Below, in pieces: positions 4,990 through 48,551 of a DNA stretch of 64,000 bases. The stretch lies in the NCBI GenBank assembly GCA_041671225.1, contig JBAZBY010000001.1, positions 763,454-827,453 on the forward strand, in the 5' to 3' direction. Under the pieces are notes generated by a model. It was given only the letters and a program-made list of their open reading frames with translations. It searched no databases and was not told the DNA's origin. Within the stretch, counting starts at the first letter, position 1. Every line of letters begins with the position of its first letter. The position numbers were made by a program, and so were the translations under genes. Source of the DNA: Patescibacteria group bacterium. GTDB taxonomy: Bacteria; Patescibacteriota; Patescibacteriia; JBAZBY01.

Positions 4990-5177
4990 GGCTCTCTTTA
5001 CTGTGCGCCGCGCGAACCTATTTTGAGACGCAGGAAGGAAAAAACGGGGAAAAATGAAAAAATCTTCTCTTGGAGGGGCGGGGCGGAATTCCCCCCAAAC
5101 CCCCCTTCCGCCCCGCCCCTTTTCTTGGGCGCGAAAATCTGAGAGTACGAAGATCTTTGTTTTACTACCGTCGCTTC
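4990..5177. repeat. 188-bp inverted repeat, arm A (perfect reverse complement of 10276-10463)
   Basis: Verified by direct reverse-complement comparison. It contains the GGGGCGGGGCGGAATTCCCCCCAAACCCCCCTTCCGCCCCGCCCC G-rich palindrome. Confidence 0.9.
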
Positions 5178-5302
5178 ACCCTTCGTGCTTGCTCAGTGCT
5201 TGCTTCGTGTTCGTTCGGTGGTGTCCATGGTAACTCTTTGTGCTTACCCCACCCGCCCTGTGAGCGCGTAAACCCGTCCGCTAACGCGGACGACTCCTTT
5301 AA

Positions 5303-7666
5303 TTAGTATTTTTGATAAATGGTGTTAAAGTCTGTAATTTTTCCTTTAAGCTGTGAAAGGCCGTGGTCGTCGCCCACATCAACATGAGAAGTAGTCCAAT
5401 TACAAAAAGAATATATATTCTTGATCTTATCCAAATCGTCGTCAGAAACTTGCTTATTTGTTTTTATGCCATCTACAACTTTTGGAAAGTCCTGCAATAC
5501 ATCAAGGTGTAGGAGACGGCATTTAATAAAGTTTTCAGTCTCGTATCTTAAATATTGGCCATACTCAACTATTTGAAGTTCAACATCAAAACCATTCTGG
5601 TTTTGTCCAAGTTGCAATAAATGTTCCTCAAAGTTGGTAAGTTTTTCAATGAACCTTTGCGTCATGCTTTTACAAATAAAGCTCCCGCCAAATCTCTTTT
5701 CGTTTCTTAGAATGTTGTATTCAAGTGATTGATCGCGGAATTTTTTGCGCAGAAACTTAAAAAATGTTCTGTGGTGAGTAAAAACAAATGTTTGTGAGAA
5801 TTTGTCTTTTTCAGTAGCAATCAAATCTACCAAGCTACTCAAGTTGCTATCGTCTAAACTTGTAATAGGATCGTCAAAGATAAGAATTTTCTTATCCTCA
5901 TCTTTCTGAATATCAAGGAAGGCAAAAAAGAAGCAGAGTGATAGAACCTGTATCTCGCCTTCCGACAGTCCTTCTTTAAGATCTCTTTCGGTCCCGTCAG
6001 AATCAATGACCCTAAACGCTAAAGGCAACTCTTTTGTAGAACCTGTGTGGCGATTGTCTGTATCAAGTTCTAAAGTAAAACTAAATTTGAAATTGCTAAA
6101 ATAGGATTCAATTTTTCGGAGTGTTTTTTTAAAAGCACCCTTAGCGCAATACTCCTCGTAGGATTCTCTTGCTATTTTGTGGGCTTCTCGTGCCTTCTCA
6201 AGCGACCTTATTAACTTGTTTAATTCTTTTAGTTGTTGGAGTTTGAACTTATTACTTTCAATCTTATTACTATTGATAAACCCCAACTCCCGCTCAATAT
6301 CATTCAAATTTCTTTGATTCTTTTCGATTCTACCAGCTAATTTTTCATCAGTATGCTCCTTTTTGAAATTTCTAATAAGCTTATTCTTGGCTTTTACAAA
6401 GCGCGCAAGTTCTAAAAAATATTTTTTTAGATTACTAAACTCATCTCGCGCCTCGCCAAACAGAATGGATATATCCTCTTTGGTAGGTTTCCCAAGATTA
6501 ACAAGTTTTGTTTTTAACTCGCCGATCTTTTTTAGGGTCGGTAATTTTCTAAAATATTCCTCCTTTTCTATGTCGTAAAGTCCTTTTATGGTATATTGTT
6601 CAACGAGCTTCTTCATTTTGATAAAATAATCGTCCAACTCAAACTCGTTGAGTGCCTCTTGTACTTGTTCCAGCTCTGCTATTAAGGTTTCCTTGTATTT
6701 TTCAAACTGACCCTCCTGCTCCTTATAAGATTCATCATAAATTTGATTGTAAGTTTTGACTATCTGTTTTATTTCTTCCTCTCTATTTTGCGTCCCGCAA
6801 AACGGGCATTGATTTGGGTGTTCATCTCTTACATCAAACCCCATTTCAAAAAATTCTTTATGTTTTTTAATCTGCTCAACCAAACTACGCTCGGCCTCCA
6901 CTTTTGCACGCTCTTTTAGTTTGAAATTAAAAACTTTCTGATAGGAAGTTTTTGAGGAGAGGTTAAACTCGATATCAACTTCCTCTAATTCTTGTATGAC
7001 TTGAACTTCCCTCGTCTTTTGCAAGAGCTGACTATCAAGTTCTAGTTCGTTGGACAAATCCACCCTCTTTTGACCGAGTTCTTCCCTTATGTTCTTAGTA
7101 GTATTTTCGTCCTTTCGTTTATACTTTCTAAAAAGTCTTTCCCCATCTTCATCTAATTCAAAACCAAGAACCCGTTTATTGCTTGTCTTAAAGTCATCAA
7201 GTTTCTGATTTTTCTCCTCCTTTATTCCAGCCAATCTATCCCTAACCTTGCGAAGTTCAATGGCATCGCCGTCAAACTCTATGACGAGGTTTCCGGATTC
7301 TTGCTCCTGTTCACCTTGCTGTGTACCTCGTTCACGGCCAAGATGAACATGCCTATCCACAAATTCCCGGTCAAAAAATAATATAGAATCTTTCGGAATA
7401 TAATCATCCCACTTATCCTCAGTGCGAGTATATTTATACCTCTTACTATCAATCAATACTTGCGCTTCTTCAGGGTAGCATTTAGTAAATTTTTTATTTT
7501 GAGATACGCTTTTAAGAATGTTACAAATTGAACTTTTTCCGCTTCCGTTCTCGCCATATAAAATGTTGGTCTTTTGGTGGAAATTCTCGGTATTAAAAAA
7601 ATTATGCCAAGAAAAATCTTGGAATGATTTATAACTTTTTATCTTCTTGATTTGCTTGAGTTTCAT
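5303..7666 (-). CDS. AAA_13-family ABC-type ATPase with a long coiled coil and Rad50-like CxxC zinc hook (RloC/PrrC-like; candidate anticodon nuclease or defence ATPase)
   Basis: Walker A GENGSGKSS at the N-terminus. A lysine/glutamate-rich coiled coil of about 450 aa has CPFCG at its centre. Walker B ILIFDDPITSLD and the H-loop FTHH follow. A C-terminal extension of about 170 aa contains RLLH. The gene is AT-rich (about 35% GC). Confidence 0.65.
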   Translation of the reverse strand: MKLKQIKKIKSYKSFQDFSWHNFFNTENFHQKTNILYGENGSGKSSICNILKSVSQNKKFTKCYPEEAQVLIDSKRYKYTRTEDKWDDYIPKDSILFFDREFVDRHVHLGRERGTQQGEQEQESGNLVIEFDGDAIELRKVRDRLAGIKEEKNQKLDDFKTSNKRVLGFELDEDGERLFRKYKRKDENTTKNIREELGQKRVDLSNELELDSQLLQKTREVQVIQELEEVDIEFNLSSKTSYQKVFNFKLKERAKVEAERSLVEQIKKHKEFFEMGFDVRDEHPNQCPFCGTQNREEEIKQIVKTYNQIYDESYKEQEGQFEKYKETLIAELEQVQEALNEFELDDYFIKMKKLVEQYTIKGLYDIEKEEYFRKLPTLKKIGELKTKLVNLGKPTKEDISILFGEARDEFSNLKKYFLELARFVKAKNKLIRNFKKEHTDEKLAGRIEKNQRNLNDIERELGFINSNKIESNKFKLQQLKELNKLIRSLEKAREAHKIARESYEEYCAKGAFKKTLRKIESYFSNFKFSFTLELDTDNRHTGSTKELPLAFRVIDSDGTERDLKEGLSEGEIQVLSLCFFFAFLDIQKDEDKKILIFDDPITSLDDSNLSSLVDLIATEKDKFSQTFVFTHHRTFFKFLRKKFRDQSLEYNILRNEKRFGGSFICKSMTQRFIEKLTNFEEHLLQLGQNQNGFDVELQIVEYGQYLRYETENFIKCRLLHLDVLQDFPKVVDGIKTNKQVSDDDLDKIKNIYSFCNWTTSHVDVGDDHGLSQLKGKITDFNTIYQKY

Positions 7667-7692
7667 CTTCCGGTCATGGCAAGGACGTCTTG

Positions 7693-8862
7693 TTACCGAT
7701 TTCCTTTTGCTCTATTGTGTGTTTTACACAGCATCTCACAATTCTTCGCCGAAGTAGCACCGCCCTTGCTCCACGCTGATACATGGTCTGCTTCCATTTC
7801 GCCAAAACCCCAAATCTTGCTTTTGTTAGCATCATGCCCAACGGCGCAAAGCGAGCAGTTTGACTTCTCTTTGGTTTCAGCCTCTTTGGTTTGTTTAGCA
7901 TAAACAGATCGTTTGGTCGCCTCATCAAAAAATCGGACATCTAGCAATTTTGTATCAACGGAGCCACCGAGAATGTATTCAAAAATGCCTCTGCGATTTT
8001 TGATATACGGATCACCATAGAGCTTATGCACCTCAGCCGATACTTTGGCTGGGTTATATGATTTTTTGTGATACTCCCCGTAAAGTCGTCCCCATTCAAG
8101 CCCGCGCATTTCGCTTTCTACGTCGGTAAATACGCCAGATACCCAATCAATGACGGTGTTAAAGTATTTTTTCAGCTCATCAATGTTTTTGTCTTTGCGA
8201 TGCTTGCTCATGTAATCGCCAATATTGCCTTTGCTAACCCAATCCAAAGCACATTCCAAAAATTCCTGTCGGTTCGCACTACCGGATACATATGCGCTCC
8301 ATTTTTGAATGTTGGCGTTTTGGCTATTGCTAAATTCTTCTTTAGCCCTAGTTACGAATGGACCGGAATACACGGCGTTGAGTAACTCCTGATTATTAAG
8401 TGGAACACCAGCAATATTTATGGTCTTGAACCATTCTTTTATCTGACTCTCTGTTCCTTCACATTCGTAAATGAGTAGTTTCGTTTCCAAAATCTTGGCT
8501 TGTTTGTCTTTTGCCATGCCACCAAAGTATTGTTCCATGCCATTTTCGTCCTTGATGGCAAATTTGTCCGTGATAAATCGTCCGAGACTTGTGATGCGCT
8601 GTTGTCCATCTAAAACTTCTAGGTTGTCGGCGGAGACGATATTAAAATAAATCAATCCGATTGGGTATCCCTTGAGAACTGATTCGATGACGGCCATTTC
8701 TCTTTTTCCGCCATCAGATGCATAAATATAATTTCGTTGATACTCCGGTTGGATGGTAAGCTTGCCAGACAAGCCAAACAGACCCTTACCCTCAAGTTCG
8801 TTATAGACAAATCCGTCACAGATCTCTTGAACAGTTACATTGGTTTTTAGGGTTGTTTTCAT
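7693..8862 (-). CDS. DUF262 (ParB-like NTPase/nuclease) domain fused to a C-terminal HNH nuclease; GmrSD-like type IV restriction enzyme candidate
   Basis: The N-terminal DGQQR motif ([13 protein letters not shown]) is typical of DUF262. The C-terminal HNH motif is CSLCAVGHD...[11 protein letters not shown]...[15 protein letters not shown]. Confidence 0.7.
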
Positions 8863-8863
8863 A

Positions 8864-9991
8864 TTATTTCTTTTTAATAAATATCCGCTTGAATTTGGTT
8901 TTTCCGTTTATTATGCAATGAGGATTTTTGCCGTCCCAAATGCCGCCAGAAAAGCCCTTTCCGTTATCTTCTGCCATTCCGACAATTTCAAATTGTTCAG
9001 GATTATATTTGTCCAAATAACTAATTGGCACACCCATCACACCTTCATAATCACTTGGGATGGCGTCGGTAAACGGCACTTCTATTGCATTATAATTGTC
9101 ATATTTATAATATGTTTTTTCGCCTTTAATCTCTTTGTGTCTACTGTATTTCAAATTTTCTTCCATTGTCATAAGTGGTAATGGTTGATGACGTCTTCCG
9201 TGATCAAGATTAGTGAGCCATAAACAGCTATTAGTAGCAACAATTCTATCCCCATTTTCATCTATTCGCGCTTCTGTTCCAAATAATTCGTAAGATTTGG
9301 GTACAATAAACCCAGAAATCCATCTTCCCATTCCATTACCAAGCCATATTTCATTATTTCTAATTTTTGGGAAAACTTCTTTATATGTTATGCAATTAAT
9401 ATTGCCGATTATCAAAAACTTTTTTTTGTGTTCAAAAAGTTGCTTAACATACTCACGGAACAAACTAAACGGCGGATTGGTTACCACAATATCAGACTGT
9501 TTCAGTAATGCTATACATTCGGGACTTCTGAAGTCACCATCTTCCTCAAGGGGCATCCATTCGTTGTTTTTGTTTTCCTTTAACTGTTTGGCAACATCTT
9601 TCAGATTGAACTCGCCATCGCCGTCTATGTCGTGCACTTCGTTTATAATGAATGTATTGGCAGTTATCTTTGGACGGCCTTTTGCATTTACAAGCGTTTT
9701 GTCATCACCAAATAATCCCAGTTGCGTGTTGGCGACAGGCGATGGTTTGTAGCTCGTTGTGATTAGCTGTTTCAGTCCAAGTCTGTTGAAATTGAGAACA
9801 AAATAACGGAAGAAATTACTCTCAAATGGATCGTCGCAGTTGCAATACACAACTTTAGCTCGAAATGTATTAGGGTTGTAATCTAAATACTTCTCAATTT
9901 CTTTCTGAATATCGCCATATTGAGTATAAAACTCATCGTTCTTTGCTCGTTTCGCATTTGTAAGATTTTTGACTGATGCTTCTCTAGCCAT
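8864..9991 (-). CDS. putative DNA N6-adenine/N4-cytosine amino-methyltransferase (NPPF catalytic motif)
   Basis: [12 protein letters not shown] matches motif IV (D/N)PP(Y/F). The upstream [11 protein letters not shown] resembles a degenerate motif I. It lies 1 nt from the DUF262-HNH gene on the same strand. Confidence 0.55.
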
Positions 9992-9995
9992 AAAT

Positions 9996-10244
9996 TTACC
10001 TCAAAAGCTCGTCGCTCGTTACTCCCAACGCTTGAGCTATTTTCTCAATGGTGGCAAGCGTGGGGTTGCCTTTGCCCGATTCAATATTGCTCATTTGAGC
10101 ACGATCAAGCCCTACCGCACGGCAAACGTCGCCTTGCGACATTTCCTTTTGCTCGCGTATGCGCTTGATATTTTTACCAAGTCTGGACGTTGGGGTTCTT
10201 ATATTCACAGATGTAATATAGCCAGATATTGTGTCGTATGACAA
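9996..10244 (-). CDS. XRE-family helix-turn-helix transcriptional regulator (controller-like)
   Basis: LGKNIKRIREQKEMSQGDVCRAVGLDRAQMSNIESGKGNPTLATIEKIAQALGVTSDELL is a canonical HTH_XRE domain. It is the first gene of the minus-strand cassette. Confidence 0.75.
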   Translation of the reverse strand: MSYDTISGYITSVNIRTPTSRLGKNIKRIREQKEMSQGDVCRAVGLDRAQMSNIESGKGNPTLATIEKIAQALGVTSDELLR

Positions 10245-19656: not shown

Positions 19657-19730
19657 TCTGTCATTCCCGCCCCGGCCTTCGCCGGGGTAAAATTCAGCGG
19701 GGATCAATGTATTCTGTCACCCCGAAAGCC
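19657..19730. repeat. interspersed palindromic repeat element (TGTCATTCCCGC...hairpin variant)
   Basis: ttctgtcattcccgccccggccttcgccgggg...ctgtcaccccgaaagc. It is a member of the family seen at 21947, 23836 and 25212. Confidence 0.55.
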
Positions 19731-21946: not shown

Positions 21947-22014
21947 TCCCTCTGTCACCCTGAGGTTTCTTGCTCTGTCATTCCCGCGAAAGCGGGAATC
22001 CAGGAGTTGATTTT
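21947..22014. repeat. interspersed palindromic repeat element
   Basis: ctctgtcaccctgagg...ctctgtcattcccgcgaaagcgggaatccaggagttgatttta. Confidence 0.7.
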
Positions 22015-22887: not shown

Positions 22888-22916
22888 TTGACAAAATAGC
22901 GTGAATAGAATATACT
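22888..22916 (+). promoter_or_regulatory. promoter (TTGACA-17-TATACT) of the Fic gene with a flanking inverted repeat; leaderless start
   Basis: ATATAGTGAAT...ATTCACTCTATAT forms an inverted repeat around the -35 box. The ATG lies 7 nt after the -10 box. Confidence 0.5.
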
Positions 22917-23835: not shown

Positions 23836-23898
23836 CCTCTCTGTCATTCCTCCCACTTGTCATTCCCGCGCATGCGGGAATCCAGGAGTTGATTTTGT
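23836..23898. repeat. interspersed palindromic repeat element
   Basis: tctctgtcattcctcccacttgtcattcccgcgcatgcgggaatccaggagttgatttt. Confidence 0.7.
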
Positions 23899-25187: not shown

Positions 25188-25211
25188 GGTGCGCCCTCCT
25201 TTCTGTCATTC

Positions 25212-25335
25212 CCGCGTAGGCGGGAATCCATCCGCTCTGTCATTCCGGCCTTGAGCCGGAATCCATTCATTTACTTTACCCGCCGGAGCGAAGCGTAGGA
25301 GGGTTGATTTTAAGGGGGAAATGGGGGATGATGGA
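25212..25335. repeat. interspersed palindromic repeat element (two hairpin units plus tail)
   Basis: ctgtcattcccgcgtaggcgggaatcca and ctgtcattccggccttgagccggaatcca are followed by agggttgattttaagggggaaatgggggatgatgg. Confidence 0.7.
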
Positions 25336-25935
25336 TTTATGACTGAGGTCTATTCACTTATTAAGGGAGTTGTAAAGAAGATTCGCGATGGACTTTTTTT
25401 GGCATCTAGTAGGACGACCGGGGAACAATACATAGAACCCTTTATTCGCAAGAAATATAATCTTAAAGATCCGACGGGCAATGACTATGATGGGATGGAT
25501 CAAGCGGGAAAAAAATACGAGATTAAGACGTGCAAAGTTTTAAGGGAGACAGGAAACGACAAAAAAACAAAATCCATTCTAGATCGTATACTTTTTGAAA
25601 GTACAAATTTAGAAACGAAAAGGCTCGTGGTTTTTAGGGACCGCGAAACGGCAAAGTACTTAGCAAATGTTCAAAACGTCAAGAGGGATCATTTTGATTA
25701 TCTCATCTACGTTTTACTATTTGCGGACTGTGTGAAAATATTTTGGGCCAAGAGGGAAGAGATTAACACCAAAGATTTTTCTCGTTGGAGTGACAAGCAT
25801 GGTCGCTATGATGCACTTGGTAAGAGTGGTCAATTTGGGATAGATAAAAACAATATATGGTGGCATCTGCAGAATCATCTCAAAGACACTGTATCCTATG
25901 ATGAAATGAGAAAAGTGTATACTGAGCTCTCCTAA
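25321..25935 (+). CDS. putative type II restriction endonuclease (PD-(D/E)xK-like), cognate of the downstream methyltransferase
   Basis: A small AT-rich ORF joined to the methyltransferase by a TAATG junction. The candidate catalytic motif is D(YDGMD)...KYEIKTCK. Confidence 0.4.
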   Translation: MGDDGFMTEVYSLIKGVVKKIRDGLFLASSRTTGEQYIEPFIRKKYNLKDPTGNDYDGMDQAGKKYEIKTCKVLRETGNDKKTKSILDRILFESTNLETKRLVVFRDRETAKYLANVQNVKRDHFDYLIYVLLFADCVKIFWAKREEINTKDFSRWSDKHGRYDALGKSGQFGIDKNNIWWHLQNHLKDTVSYDEMRKVYTELS

Positions 25936-27572
25936 TGAATGGTGTGATCGCGAGAAATACCACCATACAAAATCGCTCAAAACAACAAAGGCTAAGTTCT
26001 GAGCACGTCATTCCTTTTCAGAATGTAAAGGGAGTTGGAGTTGTAAGTTTTTTGCAGTCTTTGAATTTTTTCACTAAGCCAAAGGAGCAAATTTTATTCT
26101 CGATTGGTTGCCATTTGCTAAAAAAAAATAGAAATCCCGCAGTGAGGAAATTTTTAGCAGAGTACGATTATGAAATTCTCGATATCCAAAATATACCCGA
26201 GAATACATTTGATCTTTTGGGTTCGATCTATCAGTTTCTCAACACAAAGAAGGAGAACTTAGAGAAGGGATCATTTTATACTGGCTCTGAAATAGCAAAG
26301 GATTTTGTTAATGATCTGGATTTTTCCTCCGGGCAGATCATTTTTGATCCTGCATGCGGATCTGGTTCATTCCTATTTAATTCCAATGCACCTGCTGAGC
26401 AAATAGTTGGAGTTGACTCTGATCCTATTGCCATCATGATTGCAAAATTTAACTACTTCATTAAGTTTCCCAGATCCCAAGAGCCAAGGCTATTCTGCTA
26501 TGATTTTTTTGATTGGTTTCCCGACAACCGTAAAATAAAATTCGATTATGTTATTAGTAATCCGCCATACGGCGCAAACCTAGATCTGTCTAGAATTCCA
26601 ACTCAATTTGTATCGTCAGGAGAAAGTTTTTCGTATTTCATTGAGTTTGGATATCAACTTCTGAAGAGCGGAGGAGTATTGAGATTTTTATTGCCAGAGG
26701 CAATTTTGAATGTAAAGCGACATACAGATATAAGAGACTTTATACTCGATCAGACTAACTTAAGGAAGATAAAAAGATATTCAAAGAAGTTTTCGGGAGT
26801 AATGTCTGATGTGTATATGATAGAGCTTGATCGTGGCCATGGCCACAAGATGTTATTTATTAATGATGTGACAACAGTCATACCAAAGAAAATATTTAGG
26901 GATTTTAAAAATCACATTCTTGTTCATTTAAATGAACAAGACATAACGATCATCGAGAAGGTGGATCGACTTAAGAGACATGATCTTTCAAATAGTATTT
27001 TTGGGTTAGGAGTGGTGACTGGCGATAATATGTCTAAACTTCTGGACAAGAGAATACCGGGCTCGGAGCCCATCTATACAGGAAAAGAGGTTAATAAGTA
27101 TAAGTTACTCACGCCCAGAAATTATCTGGTTTTTGATAGGGAGAAATTACAGCAGGTTGCTCCTGATGAAATATACAGAGCACCAAAGAAATTAGTGTAC
27201 AAGACAATCAATAAATTTTTGAAGGTTGCTCTCGATACGACGCGATCTCTAACAACAAATAGTGCCAACATAGTGATTCCAAGGGTTCCGGAGTTAGATA
27301 TTTATGTGCTGATGGCATTTTTGAATTCTGACCTTTACTCTTATCTAAATTTAAAGTTATTTGGTGGTGTTAACAAAATCGCAAAAGAAAATCTAATGGC
27401 ATTGCCCTTCCCAGGTATTTCAAAAACAGAGAATACCGTGATTAAAAATCTAGTCAAAGATGCTATCAAGAAAGGAAATGATGAATATCTGCAAAAGTAC
27501 ATTAATAAGAAAATTTTTAAGTTATCTGAACGAGAGATTGCTTATATTAAAGGTTTTGTAACAAAAAAATAA
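25935..27572 (+). CDS. N6-adenine DNA methyltransferase, gamma class (type II R-M)
   Basis: Motif I is IFDPACGSGSFLF and motif IV is VISNPPYG. The C-terminal half is a large target-recognition domain. GC is about 33%. Confidence 0.8.
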   Translation: MNGVIARNTTIQNRSKQQRLSSEHVIPFQNVKGVGVVSFLQSLNFFTKPKEQILFSIGCHLLKKNRNPAVRKFLAEYDYEILDIQNIPENTFDLLGSIYQFLNTKKENLEKGSFYTGSEIAKDFVNDLDFSSGQIIFDPACGSGSFLFNSNAPAEQIVGVDSDPIAIMIAKFNYFIKFPRSQEPRLFCYDFFDWFPDNRKIKFDYVISNPPYGANLDLSRIPTQFVSSGESFSYFIEFGYQLLKSGGVLRFLLPEAILNVKRHTDIRDFILDQTNLRKIKRYSKKFSGVMSDVYMIELDRGHGHKMLFINDVTTVIPKKIFRDFKNHILVHLNEQDITIIEKVDRLKRHDLSNSIFGLGVVTGDNMSKLLDKRIPGSEPIYTGKEVNKYKLLTPRNYLVFDREKLQQVAPDEIYRAPKKLVYKTINKFLKVALDTTRSLTTNSANIVIPRVPELDIYVLMAFLNSDLYSYLNLKLFGGVNKIAKENLMALPFPGISKTENTVIKNLVKDAIKKGNDEYLQKYINKKIFKLSEREIAYIKGFVTKK

Positions 27573-27580
27573 TAATTTTC

Positions 27581-27609
27581 TTGACGCCCCTTCCAGCGGA
27601 GCGTATGGT
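27581..27609 (+). promoter_or_regulatory. sigma70-type promoter with a palindromic operator in the spacer (ACGCCCC-N7-GGAGCGT)
   Basis: TTGACG, a 17-nt spacer, then TATGGT. Near-identical to 28369-28397. Confidence 0.55.
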
Positions 27610-27652
27610 TGTAATATTGTAGGAGTAATTGTTAATATCCAAAGAATTCACC

Positions 27653-27925
27653 ATGAGATGCTACATTCTCACATATGAGAATAAGTCAGGGTTTGATGAG
27701 GCACGATTGATTCAGACGATCAAGGATTATGGAACCTGGGCTCACATAAATGGAAATGCCTGGGCATTTTTAAGTGATAAACCTGCATCTCAGCTTCGTG
27801 ATGAATTTAGGGCCATGGTCAACGAAAGCGATAGCGTTTTTGTTATAAAGACGGGCGTTGAGGCAGCTTGGTCAAATACACACGCTGAATCAAGCTGGTT
27901 ACGCAAATACCTTTTGTATGGTTGA
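27653..27925 (+). CDS. hypothetical small cytoplasmic protein (candidate sensor or regulator of a two-gene module)
   Basis: A 90-aa ORF downstream of the promoter/operator at 27581-27609. It overlaps the next gene by 8 nt. Confidence 0.45.
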   Translation: MRCYILTYENKSGFDEARLIQTIKDYGTWAHINGNAWAFLSDKPASQLRDEFRAMVNESDSVFVIKTGVEAAWSNTHAESSWLRKYLLYG

Positions 27926-28313
27926 GCAAGGAGAAAAAAATCCAGAATCCCAACCACACATTGTCCGGGCATCACTAGACGAAATTGTTGTTTATGATGT
28001 TACAGAGGATGAACTCGACATACTTGAAAATGGTTCACCTAGCTCGCAATACCTGAATTTTGCTTTATTTGCCCTTTCCAGTTTCCTTTCCTTTCTCGCC
28101 GTTTTGCTGACGGTTACAATTGAATTGGACAGAATTTTCATGGTGTTTATTGTGGTTACCATTGTGTCGGGGGCTGCCGGAGCCATTTTTGGAATTCTTT
28201 GGTTTCATAATCGGGTATCAGTAAATAAAATGACCGCTAGAATTCGTAAACGTAAAAGAATACCCGAAGCTCAGGATAGTAGTGGTCAACAGATCAACGT
28301 AACCACTAAATGA
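27918..28313 (+). CDS. hypothetical small membrane protein (2 TM)
   Basis: The ATG at 27918 is in frame with the listed ORF. The TM helices are FALFALSSFLSFLAVLLTV and MVFIVVTIVSGAAGAIFGILWF. Confidence 0.45.
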   Translation: MVEQGEKNPESQPHIVRASLDEIVVYDVTEDELDILENGSPSSQYLNFALFALSSFLSFLAVLLTVTIELDRIFMVFIVVTIVSGAAGAIFGILWFHNRVSVNKMTARIRKRKRIPEAQDSSGQQINVTTK

Positions 28314-28368
28314 TAGGGCTTGTAGCTTCGGAATTCTAAGCCCCTCTGGCACTCTGGAAAAACTTTTC

Positions 28369-28397
28369 TTGACGCCCCTCCTCTCGGGGCGTATGGT
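28369..28397 (+). promoter_or_regulatory. sigma70-type promoter with a perfect palindromic operator (ACGCCCC-N7-GGGGCGT)
   Basis: TTGACG, a 17-nt spacer, then TATGGT. Upstream of the HEPN-like gene. Confidence 0.55.
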
Positions 28398-28439
28398 TGT
28401 GTTTGGATATACATGGAATACAAATTAGTTTGATACTTC

Positions 28440-29708
28440 ATGCCCAGAAAAAGAAGCTCGAAGCGAAAACGTCAACAGGATGAGTTTGATCGATTATCAA
28501 AAGTTTTTGTAAGTAGAATTGTACCAATTTATGACTTATTTTTATTATTCCAAAATGTTAGAGATCAACGGTATAAAAAATTTGATAAAAATTTAAAATC
28601 ATTCCTCAAAAAAAGATACATCACAAGTGAGGGAAAAATAGCAAAACTCCAAATTGAACATCCTCAAGAATTCAGGGCTTTGATTGCAACACAAAAAGAA
28701 CTTAACGAATTAATATTTGCAAGAACACGAATCCCTTCCGCCTTTTTGTCGTTGCTGCTTGAGGAATACGAAACATTTGTTCAAAAATGTTTACAACTTT
28801 ATTTTCAAAAAAAATCTTATCGGCTTTATAGGTCTGATAAAACATTAAGTTATGAGGAAATTCTGAAGGTTAATTCAGCTTTAGGTTTGAAGGAACGAAT
28901 CTTCCAGAAGGAATCAAAGAAAATTATCGATGATGGCGTGAGCGGTATTATCAAGTGGTTTCAGCATGAGGAGATTCAAATACAAAATTACCTCTTTGAT
29001 ATTTGGATGCTAGCTGAAATATTTCAAAGAAGAAATATGCACGTTCACAATCTTGGTAGAGTTGATGAAAAATATATTAGTGTTCTTAAAAATGCAGAAT
29101 TTCCGAATCATTCGAAACTAAAAATAGGTGAGAGATTACCAATCGATTCGGATTATCTGGAAAAAGCTCTCGAGGCTTTTATTGAGAGTGGCATAATAAT
29201 TGCAACCCTACTTTGGATGAAGTGTAGTCCAAAGGATAAAAATAAAAGAATGGAGAATTTATATGAGCTTGGGTACAAATTACTTGAAGAACATAAATAT
29301 GGTTGTTCAGGTAAGGTTCTAAATTTCGCGCAGCATTCGAGTATGACTATTGGTAGCAAAAAGGAACTAAAAATTATTAATATCATAAACCTTGCAACCG
29401 CATATAAATTGTCCGGTGATCGAAAAAAATTTAAATCAACACTATCATTAATTAATAGAACAGAATTAGATGAAAGATTTCAATTTGCTATTGCCGTTCT
29501 TGAGCATAAGTATGTGTTAGCATCTGAATTGATGAAGAAGATTGGAAGAAATGGTTCAATAAGGCGCGATGATTACCATGAGTGGCCACTATTAGCAAAA
29601 TTTAGAAAAACAAAACTTTTTATTAAAACTTACAAAGGTATTTTTGGAGATAATTATAATTTTAAGAGTCCATTTACATCCCGTGTATTTAAAAATATTG
29701 ATCTCTAA
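28440..29708 (+). CDS. HEPN-like (Rx4H) abortive-infection-type protein
   Basis: A 422-aa AT-rich ORF with an RNMHVH (Rx4H) motif, as seen in Abi_2/HEPN proteins. It has its own promoter with the same operator as the upstream module. Confidence 0.45.
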   Translation: MPRKRSSKRKRQQDEFDRLSKVFVSRIVPIYDLFLLFQNVRDQRYKKFDKNLKSFLKKRYITSEGKIAKLQIEHPQEFRALIATQKELNELIFARTRIPSAFLSLLLEEYETFVQKCLQLYFQKKSYRLYRSDKTLSYEEILKVNSALGLKERIFQKESKKIIDDGVSGIIKWFQHEEIQIQNYLFDIWMLAEIFQRRNMHVHNLGRVDEKYISVLKNAEFPNHSKLKIGERLPIDSDYLEKALEAFIESGIIIATLLWMKCSPKDKNKRMENLYELGYKLLEEHKYGCSGKVLNFAQHSSMTIGSKKELKIINIINLATAYKLSGDRKKFKSTLSLINRTELDERFQFAIAVLEHKYVLASELMKKIGRNGSIRRDDYHEWPLLAKFRKTKLFIKTYKGIFGDNYNFKSPFTSRVFKNIDL

Positions 29709-29798
29709 CACGAACTTCATTATTGAGTCTAAATAGACATCCCCACCCCCCCAACAGTAAAGCCCAAAAAGTATCTCCACCCAAAACCCAAAACACAC

Positions 29799-30384: not shown

Positions 30385-30427
30385 CAAAAACACCCCAGTG
30401 ATACCGTCACAGCGGTGTGGTGTTTTT
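30385..30427. terminator. bidirectional rho-independent terminator between convergent genes
   Basis: An A-run, an imperfect long hairpin (AAAAACACC...GGTGTTTTT) and a T-run. Confidence 0.55.
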
Positions 30428-30759
30428 TATGCGGAGAAGATGTTCCGTTCGTTCAACGGAATATGCTGCCCTTTGAGTTCCCGGACGAGGCTGTGGAGCG
30501 CGCGATCCGTACCAACCAGTTCAAGCACGGCAACTTTCACGTCACCGAGCTCTGATTTAATCTCAATGATACCACTTTCCATCCGATCCATCCGGGCGTC
30601 CATCCGATCCATCCGCGTATCTTGTTTTCCCTGGCCACGAACAAGCTGTTCGTTCAGGTCGCGAATCGAGCCACTGAGAACTTCAGTTTGGGCTTCAAAC
30701 TGTGTTTTGAACAGCTCCTTGATGGTGCTGATATCGTTGTGTGTGAGAGACATGTTCAT
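30427..30759 (-). CDS. hypothetical coiled-coil protein
   Basis: A start at MNMSL is preferred. The product contains an RMDRMDARMDRME repeat. Confidence 0.4.
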   Translation of the reverse strand: MNMSLTHNDISTIKELFKTQFEAQTEVLSGSIRDLNEQLVRGQGKQDTRMDRMDARMDRMESGIIEIKSELGDVKVAVLELVGTDRALHSLVRELKGQHIPLNERNIFSA

Positions 30760-31713: not shown

Positions 31714-31806
31714 TAGTGATGGTGAGACAGAAGTAGTAGGACAGACAAGGTTGACAATTTCTCTATATTATAATACGATTATAATACTGATTTTTCATAC
31801 ACACCT

Positions 31807-32046
31807 ATGACCCAAAAAGTACTCAAAGTCGGCAGCTCTGCTGCGGTGACCATTCCAAAGGAAGCGTTGGTTGATTTGCAATGGAAAATCGGAGATAGAG
31901 TGACTGTGGAAAAAGACACCAAACGTGGTGGCCTTGTTATCTTGCCGGTACGCAAAGGAAAGATCGATGCAGAAGTGCTTGACTGGACGGATAACTTCAT
32001 CAAAAAGTACCGTCCGGCACTGGAAGCATTGGCAAACAAGAAATGA
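31807..32046 (+). CDS. AbrB/MazE/SpoVT-family antitoxin
   Basis: KVLKVGSSAAVTIPKEALVDLQWKIGDRV is a swapped-hairpin motif. The stop overlaps the start of the next gene (ATGA). Confidence 0.7.
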   Translation: MTQKVLKVGSSAAVTIPKEALVDLQWKIGDRVTVEKDTKRGGLVILPVRKGKIDAEVLDWTDNFIKKYRPALEALANKK

Positions 32047-32426
32047 CGTACCTCGACGGCGAAGAGGTGCTGGTGCTTCATGCCCGCATGATCGAACTGA
32101 TCGGCGGTTCGCATGGCGTTCGCGATGCTGAGCTGTTGAAGTCTATTCTTGAAGCGCCGAAGCAACGTTTTGGCGGCAAGGCATTACATGCAACCGTATG
32201 GGAAAAGGCGGCAGTATATCTGGAACGCTTTGCGCAGTTTCACGTGTTTGTGGATGGCAATAAGCGGACGGCCATTATTGCGACAGCACGGTTCTTGTAT
32301 CTCAACGGCTATACCTATCATGCGACGAATACAGAAACGGAGCGGTTTGTGTTGCGCGTTACTACAGAGAAACTTGATATGAAGGAAATTGCTGCGTGGC
32401 TGAAGAATCACAGTAAGAAGCAATAA
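32043..32426 (+). CDS. doc: Doc (death-on-curing) toxin, Fic/Doc family
   Basis: The Doc motif HVFVDGNKRTA is present. Confidence 0.8.
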   Translation: MTYLDGEEVLVLHARMIELIGGSHGVRDAELLKSILEAPKQRFGGKALHATVWEKAAVYLERFAQFHVFVDGNKRTAIIATARFLYLNGYTYHATNTETERFVLRVTTEKLDMKEIAAWLKNHSKKQ

Positions 32427-48467: not shown

Positions 48468-48483
48468 CCTCATGACAGCACAC

Positions 48484-48513
48484 AAAGCGCCCCGGCATAC
48501 GGGGCGCTTTGGT
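48484..48513 (+). terminator. rho-independent terminator
   Basis: AAAGCGCCCCG-GCATA-CGGGGCGCTTT. Confidence 0.6.
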
Positions 48514-48551
48514 ATTGTGTGCATCTCGTTTATACTAAAGAGGTGAAGCCG

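Follow-up and report, generated by a model that had tools for sequence, protein, structure and literature searches.

A 64-kb stretch of a Patescibacteria contig, referred to here as the window, contains a 4.4-kb segment of low GC content that we call the foreign defence island of this genome, and of which an identical copy is present in an independent assembly. The island carries, in this order, the genes for a putative restriction endonuclease and a DNA methyltransferase, a promoter-like block (P1), the genes for a 90-amino-acid (aa) and a 131-aa protein, a second promoter-like block (P2) and the gene for a 422-aa protein (Table 1). The topic of this article is the two blocks, each of which has an inverted repeat in the spacer between its -35 and -10 boxes, and the two toxin-like units that follow them.

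Read directly from the DNA, P1 is TTGACGCCCCTTCCAGCGGAGCGTATGGT at positions 27581-27609 and P2 is TTGACGCCCCTCCTCTCGGGGCGTATGGT at positions 28369-28397. The repeat finder aligned the two regions over 42 nt with 83% identity, and no alignment between them was obtained in the flanks outside these blocks. With up to three mismatches allowed, the joint pattern matched solely P1 and P2 in the window and had no match in 100 dinucleotide-preserving shuffles. At the level of the sequence, the original prediction of two near-identical promoters of the form TTGACG-17-TATGGT was thus borne out by a pair of blocks that are unique in the window. Its further claim, that both sites carry the same repeat ACGCCCC-N7-GGGGCGT, holds for P2, where the repeat is perfect, but only in part for P1, where one mismatch in the right arm (GGAGCGT) leaves six of the seven positions complementary. 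A potential third copy in front of the restriction-modification (R-M) operon was rejected, as the alignment consisted of scattered identity, with neither TTGAC nor the repeat. We read P1 and P2 as a duplicated short promoter cassette in the host's own style, situated upstream of two toxin-like units.

Table 1. Features of the low-GC island, with positions counted from the first letter of the window.
Feature	Position	Strand	Details
Low-GC island	25300-29720	+	Five co-oriented genes; about 36% GC versus about 52% GC in the genome (composition profile)
Putative type II restriction endonuclease, 204 aa	25321-25935	+	Weak PADLOC match to REase_II, E-value 2.4e-4
N6-adenine DNA methyltransferase, 545 aa	25935-27572	+	N6_Mtase, Eco57I and TaqI_C; Pfam E-values 4e-18 to 6e-17
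P1 block	27571-27612	+	-35 box TTGACG at 27581-27586; 17-nt spacer; -10 box TATGGT at 27604-27609
P1 inverted repeat	27584-27590 and 27598-27604		Left arm ACGCCCC, right arm GGAGCGT (6/7 complementary); loop TTCCAGC
90-aa Cas2-fold (GhoS-like) protein	27653-27925	+	First gene of the two-gene module; phrog_1090, E-value 1.6e-14
131-aa protein with two hydrophobic segments of transmembrane length	27918-28313	+	Hydropathy peaks near residues 48-66 and 73-93
P2 block	28359-28400	+	-35 box TTGACG at 28369-28374; 17-nt spacer; -10 box TATGGT at 28392-28397
P2 inverted repeat	28372-28378 and 28386-28392		Perfect arms; loop TCCTCTC
422-aa HEPN-motif protein	28440-29708	+	TPR-like C-terminal half

The form and placement of the two blocks suggest that they act as promoters, which we consider likely. 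Each matches TTGACA-17-TATAAT at nine of the 12 positions, and both were listed in a consensus promoter scan. They are intergenic, and their hexamers are separated by 17 nt, which is the optimal sigma-70 spacer. The methylase stop codon is followed after 8 nt by the -35 box of P1, the -10 box of which ends 44 nt before the ATG at 27653, while the -35 box of P2 starts 55 nt after the stop codon of the 131-aa gene and its -10 box ends 43 nt before the ATG at 28440. Sites of the form TTGACN-N16-18-TAnnnT are also located just 5' of other genes in the window, at 22888, 30818 (minus strand), 31751, 35790 and 37868, of which the last precedes a gene call with BipA/EF-G-type domains, and those at 31751 and 30818 are TTGACA-17 sites before a mazE-like gene and a minus-strand gene, respectively. 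The tttcTTGAC(A/G) context of P1 and P2 recurs at the promoter-like sites 35790 and 37868, and a T-rich context ending in C is common to P1, P2 and two other sites in the window (catttcTTGACA and ttttcccTTGACG). The promoter reading is plausible because of the distances to the start codons and because the tttcTTGAC context is as at likely host promoters. The shell of the blocks looks like the ordinary host promoter form, and the palindrome alone appears to be special to P1 and P2.

Each cassette consists of a stretch rich in T at its upstream end, followed by TCTTGACG, a spacer of 17 bp and TATGGT, and would start a separate transcript about 36 nt before the first codon. The transcript from P1 would cover the translationally coupled pair of genes for the Cas2-fold protein and the protein with two transmembrane segments (2-TM protein), and that from P2 the gene for the 422-aa protein, with its HEPN motif and its TPR-like half. 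We read the cassettes as making the two toxin-like modules separate transcription units 3' of the R-M genes, and the sigma-70-type look and the position of the blocks support the original suggestion that a separate unit lies behind each of them.

The inverted repeat begins inside the -35 box and ends on the initial base of the -10 box, so that it spans the region contacted by the polymerase. The 36%-GC island contains one GC-rich stem that is perfect over 7 bp or more, whereas 300 shuffles contained 0.04 such stems on average. P1 and P2 differ at five positions of the 37-nt core, and four of these are inside the 7-nt loop, which corresponds to changes at 4/7 of the loop positions versus 1/30 in the rest of the core (Fisher p = 0.0025). 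Much of the remaining core, however, is promoter and would be conserved in any case. In the spacer alone, changes were observed at 4/7 of the loop positions versus 1/10 of the arm positions (p = 0.10), which is not significant, so that any constraint acting on the repeat in addition to the promoter boxes is no more than suggested. Taken together, the contrast between loop and arms and the rarity of the GC-rich stem are suggestive but not conclusive, and we think that the inverted repeat is probably functional.

One possibility is that the promoter was copied while the modules were assembled and that the repeat has no function of its own, tuning promoter strength at most through its GC content or the stiffness of the DNA. 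The upstream T-tract, the -35 box, the -10 box and the following TGT explain most of the conservation of the blocks, the arms and the loop do not differ significantly inside the spacer, no regulator was recognized among the island proteins and no further copies were found in the window. Furthermore, the TTGACGCCCC-N7-GGGGCGTAT design occurs sporadically elsewhere, as in a Treponema metagenome-assembled genome (MAG), where it is located between DeoC and Bmp/PnrA-like genes. We regard a functionless repeat as only slightly less probable than the operator described below. Against it, a perfect GC-rich repeat of 7 bp is unlikely by chance at 36% GC, and the repeat has been kept in both copies while the loop has diverged at four of its seven positions.

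The leading reading, which we put forward tentatively and at less than even chances, is that the repeat serves as a shared operator for a symmetric DNA-binding protein. A protein bound at the repeat would block RNA polymerase, and both toxin-like units would then sit under one signal. Repressor operators located over or between the -35 and -10 boxes, of the TetR, LexA and MerR types, likewise place an inverted repeat inside the core promoter, and one such site can recur at a pair of promoters whose genes are related in function. P1 and P2 differ from these in that no cognate regulator was found in the island and in that arms of 7 bp surround a gap of 7 bp, which puts 14 bp between the centres of the half-sites. 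With its optimal length of 17 bp, their spacer also differs from those of MerR-type promoters, which are 19-20 bp. C-protein operators of R-M systems also resemble P1 and P2, with a palindromic site in the promoter of an island that contains R-M genes. However, the island has no C-protein or helix-turn-helix gene according to Pfam, the sites precede the neighbouring modules rather than the R-M genes, and neither P1 nor P2 is repeated in front of the endonuclease gene.

Apart from the spacer comparison given above, several observations weigh against an operator. No DNA-binding domain was identified with Pfam in the five island proteins, and the two intergenic gaps are too short to leave room for another gene. 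No third copy of the repeat was found in the 64-kb window, even when two mismatches and a variable spacing were allowed. A distance of 14 bp between half-site centres is off one helical turn of the DNA, and such a spacing is unusual for simple dimeric repressors. There are only two copies and these have a common ancestry, and thus there is no independent replication. In the upstream regions of 10 loci of the HEPN family and nine Cas2-like loci, the motif was absent and no consistent promoter palindrome was seen. Since no recognizable binder is encoded by the five island genes, the protein that would bind the repeat is probably host-encoded or unconventional, and the 90-aa protein, which the original prediction had named as a candidate regulator, is an unlikely one. 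Tight repression and abortive infection, both of which were part of that prediction, are inferences from context.

The motif was also sought outside the window, with TTGACGCCCC-N7-GGRGCGTAT as the exact scan pattern. A total of 10 stretches were recovered from 596 Gb of species-representative genomes, where about nine were expected by chance according to our estimate, along with 10 stretches from the metagenome collection and none from viral contigs. The source genome was not among the matches of either collection scan, and the search of that genome covered the 64-kb window but not the other roughly 1 Mb. None of the matches comes from Patescibacteria; all are single sites, in unrelated and mostly GC-rich taxa. 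This number is what would be expected if a few ordinary promoters fit the pattern by chance, and a few of the matches look like real promoters. A generic promoter element, which would be found before many unrelated housekeeping genes and would have refuted the original prediction, is ruled out by the scatter of about 10 single sites per collection and none in viral contigs. The motif is not conserved with the Cas2-like or the HEPN family among the homologous loci examined.

Some individual matches may be mentioned. In the Treponema MAG (CAYRLW010000001.1, locus L012, 3990-4025), the sequence tttttcTTGACGCCCCtttggaaGGGGCGTATACT between the DeoC and Bmp/PnrA-like genes has the same promoter-plus-palindrome design before a housekeeping transporter gene. 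The promoter shell without the palindrome (TTCTTGACG-N17-TATGGTTGT) had no match in viral contigs, and a BLASTN search of phage and plasmid collections, with the P2 block as the query, gave short matches only. The best of these, TCCTGACGCCCCTCCTCTCGGGGCGT on a plasmid of Rhodococcus sp. PD04 (NZ_CP142145.1, 59052-59077; locus L058, 1501-1526), is identical to P2 at 25 of 26 positions including the loop and is situated in a divergent intergenic region 5' of an HNH endonuclease gene, but with an E-value of 0.01 it is probably due to chance. Within the island, a third occurrence of GTATGGTTG at 27915-27923 was dropped, as we estimate that chance alone would produce about one such recurrence of a 9-mer in the island.

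An alternative to a protein-binding site is that the repeat acts at the RNA level, as a stem-loop in read-through transcripts that would terminate, insulate or stabilize the 3' end of the upstream unit, namely the methylase mRNA at P1 and the two-gene mRNA at P2, with the next promoter superimposed on it to save space. The blocks are located 8 and 55 nt past the stop codons of these units, and P2 is predicted to be stable as RNA (-17.1 kcal/mol, z -2.6). Furthermore, a near-identical stem, GCGCCCC...GGGGCGC with a loop of 7-9 nt, is present in host terminators at 48487 and 42488, and since a host terminator at 48483-48540 runs into an apparent next promoter, such compact junctions may be native to the host. 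In our reading of the segment 48483-48553, the terminator CAAAGCGCCCCG-gcata-CGGGGCGCTTTG leads straight into an apparent promoter, TTGGTA-16-TATACT.

P1 and P2 resemble intrinsic terminators that overlap the next promoter in having a GC-rich hairpin just 3' of a gene and in, or next to, the following promoter, but they differ in their weak T-tract and in the mismatched stem of P1. Because of the C.A mismatch, the P1 hairpin is weak on the plus strand (-7.5 kcal/mol, z +0.8) and no better than in shuffled sequences. The tail of P2 has four T in nine nucleotides versus 5-7 T at the host terminators 42488, 48483 and 53612, both blocks lack the A/T-tract flanks of clear host terminators, and neither was listed by the terminator scan. 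The weak P1 hairpin and tails that are not T-rich make a pure terminator role less likely. No hairpin was found after the last gene of the island, which thus makes no systematic use of such terminators. The 5' leaders of the P1 and P2 units are unrelated and fold no better than shuffled sequences, and no known RNA family was identified in the segment 24500-30500 at E-values up to 1. Overall, we regard a role of the repeat in RNA as unlikely.

It is also conceivable that the blocks are recombination sites, in which case the geometry of 7-7-7 would correspond to the core of a tyrosine-recombinase site, and the two direct copies would bound an inserted cassette of 788 bp with the two-gene module. 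Arms of 7 bp around a centre of 7 bp resemble lambda-type core sites, and the segment enclosed by the two direct repeats is exactly the Cas2-like/2-TM module. Moreover, Cas2-like genes have been reported in integron cassettes (PMC3710099). Yet the central 7 nt of the two blocks differ at four positions, there is no recombinase gene in or next to the island, and the homologous modules found elsewhere lack such flanks. Products of recombination share the overlap sequence, and we consider this explanation very improbable.

The first gene behind P1 encodes a member of a broad family of small Cas2-like proteins. A profile search identified 270 homologues of the 90-aa protein, many of which are named Cas2, and 58 of the 69 aligned members match PF09827 (Cas2) but not GhoS. 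The protein is 37-40% identical to lone genes annotated as Cas2 in temperate phages of Staphylococcus and Mannheimia. The AlphaFold2 (AF2) model of the protein has a predicted local distance difference test (pLDDT) score of 94.5, and its best fold matches in PDB are GhoS, at the top, BPSL1038 (TM 0.73) and many Cas2 proteins. A comparison of the family profile to E. coli GhoS with hhalign gave an E-value of 7e-5 and a probability of 62%, which is a remote similarity. GhoS is a Cas2-like endoribonuclease that serves as the antitoxin of the membrane toxin GhoT (PMC4010927; PMC4344625) and is reported to have no part in the transcriptional control of its own operon (PMC4344625). BPSL1038 is a lone Cas2-like endonuclease for double-stranded DNA (PMC10491678). 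The Cas2 fold and the structural match to GhoS thus weaken the proposal that the 90-aa protein is the regulator of the two promoters and, by analogy, make it a poor candidate for a repressor, although a dimer of the Cas2 type might conceivably bind DNA. It is the only one of the 69 aligned members with the substitutions D9E, L10N, Y16E, S35N and D57N at near-invariant positions, and because D9 aligns with the catalytic aspartate of Cas2, the predicted activity of the protein may be altered or lost.

The 90-aa and 131-aa genes overlap at the stop of the former and the start of the latter (ATGGTTGA). The two hydrophobic segments of the 131-aa protein agree with the module having been described as containing a membrane protein in the original prediction. 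This protein has no family match in Pfam, and PADLOC-DB v2.0 yielded no significant match for it or for the 90-aa protein. It is, however, 38% identical to the partner of the Cas2-like protein at locus L033 (E-value 4e-24), and homologous partner genes directly follow or overlap the Cas2-like gene at loci L033, L048, L050-53 and L054-56. The partner proteins have in common an N-terminal domain, a pair of hydrophobic segments and a basic tail, and their homology at these loci indicates that the two genes form a conserved module arranged like ghoS-ghoT. The module consists of a gene for a Cas2-fold protein of about 88 aa and, overlapping with it or next to it, a gene for a 2-TM protein of 130-148 aa, and it is present in several unrelated lineages, represented by at least four contig groups in addition to the window (window 27653-28313; L033 4001-4635; L048 3001-3673; L050 2245-2915; L054 3001-3692).

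As in the type V system GhoS-GhoT of E. coli, a Cas2-fold protein of about 90 aa comes first in the pair in the window and a small protein with two transmembrane segments follows closely behind (PMC4010927; PMC4344625). The similarity to GhoS is nevertheless remote, and the family is closer to Cas2 (PF09827). The partner in the window has 131 aa and a conserved cytoplasmic N-terminal domain, whereas GhoT has 57 aa (ghoT coding sequence 174 nt), and the Cas2-fold copy in the window differs additionally by the five substitutions mentioned above, among them D9E, at positions that are nearly invariant in the family. The pair is thus GhoST-like by layout and does not belong to the GhoS and GhoT families by sequence. 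A different arrangement was seen in a P4-like satellite with primase, Ogr/Delta and integrase genes (L035-L037, 4001-5987), where the Cas2-like gene is located between Ogr/Delta and the integrase and is followed by genes for a 365-aa and a hydrophobic 189-aa protein without Pfam matches. The latter two may serve this small protein as a different set of effectors.

The gene behind P2 represents a very large, unnamed family that has no Pfam model (window 28440-29708; L019-L032). A HMMER search with the 422-aa protein recovered 2485 relatives among cluster representatives. In an alignment of 81 sequences, E193 and R197 are invariant, and R198, N199 and H203 are nearly invariant (at least 90%), forming an RRNxxxH motif of the HEPN type, in line with the earlier description of the gene as HEPN-like. 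Six of the 81 relatives match PF18735 (HEPN_RiboL-PSP). The 422-aa protein itself has no Pfam match, and the family profile has no sequence match in PDB. The AF2 model, with a pLDDT of 91, is all-helical and has only weak matches to TPR-like folds. Relatives adjoin cI-like repressors (L022, L025) and a P4-type integrase with Ogr/Delta (L029), where defence genes of prophages and satellites are typically located.

HEPN genes inside R-M operons are well described (PMC3710099). The 422-aa protein shares the R-x4-H motif and the R-M neighbour with the HEPN ribonucleases of abortive-infection and R-M-linked systems, such as AbiD/AbiF and Ribo L-PSP-HEPN (Anantharaman et al., 2013; PMC3710099), and its relatives are likewise found beside prophage repressors and integrases. 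It differs from them in that its long N-terminal helical hairpin and its TPR-like C-terminal half are specific to the family. We infer from this context that the protein may have a role in abortive infection.

The R-M genes are located at the 5' end of the island. The gene for the putative endonuclease, for which no Pfam or PDB match was obtained, overlaps at its end with the start of the methylase gene. The methyltransferase also matches the MTase_II model in PADLOC (E-value 3.6e-64), but its relatives in PDB are too distant to infer the recognition site. No close relatives of the island were found in the protein collection, where the 422-aa protein had one word-index match at 27% identity and the 90-aa protein matched only itself.

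Other features were observed in the surroundings of the island. A palindromic repeat resembling the repetitive extragenic palindromic (REP) elements, GTCATTCCCGC-N4-GCGGGAATCC, and variants thereof are located between host genes at 19670-19687, 21980-21999, 23862-23881, 25208-25227 and 25242-25262, with two REP-like copies directly at the left edge of the island. Another stretch of low GC content (35-41%) at 5000-10000 in the window is possibly a second foreign island. On the 3' side, at a distance of 2 kb from the island, a gene pair for a MazE-like antitoxin and a Fic/Doc protein (31807-32426) has its own promoter, TTGACA-17-TACGAT, at 31751. An exact direct repeat of 17 nt, TCCATCCGATCCATCCG, is present twice, 21 nt apart, at 30578-30615 in an open reading frame on the minus strand (30427-30759) and corresponds to RMDRMDARMDRME in the protein.

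A more far-reaching hypothesis is that the 21-bp repeat is a dedicated switch for the GhoST-like membrane-toxin module and the HEPN ribonuclease, read by an unconventional factor. One candidate for such a factor is a dimer of the divergent Cas2-fold protein, which would bind DNA in a sequence-specific manner and thereby give the fold a new role. The other candidate is the methylation state that the neighbouring N6-adenine methyltransferase establishes, in which case a failure of the R-M system would release both toxin units. We consider a switch of this kind very unlikely.

Promoters and regulatory sites have hardly been studied in the Patescibacteria because these organisms are uncultured. 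What we describe is, as judged from the sequence, a further example of a familiar arrangement, and the regulatory claim is a hypothesis about two related sequences. A pair of promoters in the style of the host with a shared candidate control site provides a small and concrete target for assays. The results at the gene level, that is, the GhoST-like module of a Cas2-fold and a 2-TM protein and the very large HEPN-TPR family, may matter more than the motif. If it is true that one signal controls both toxin-like units, the island would represent a layered defence, with restriction-modification followed by toxin modules, under common control.

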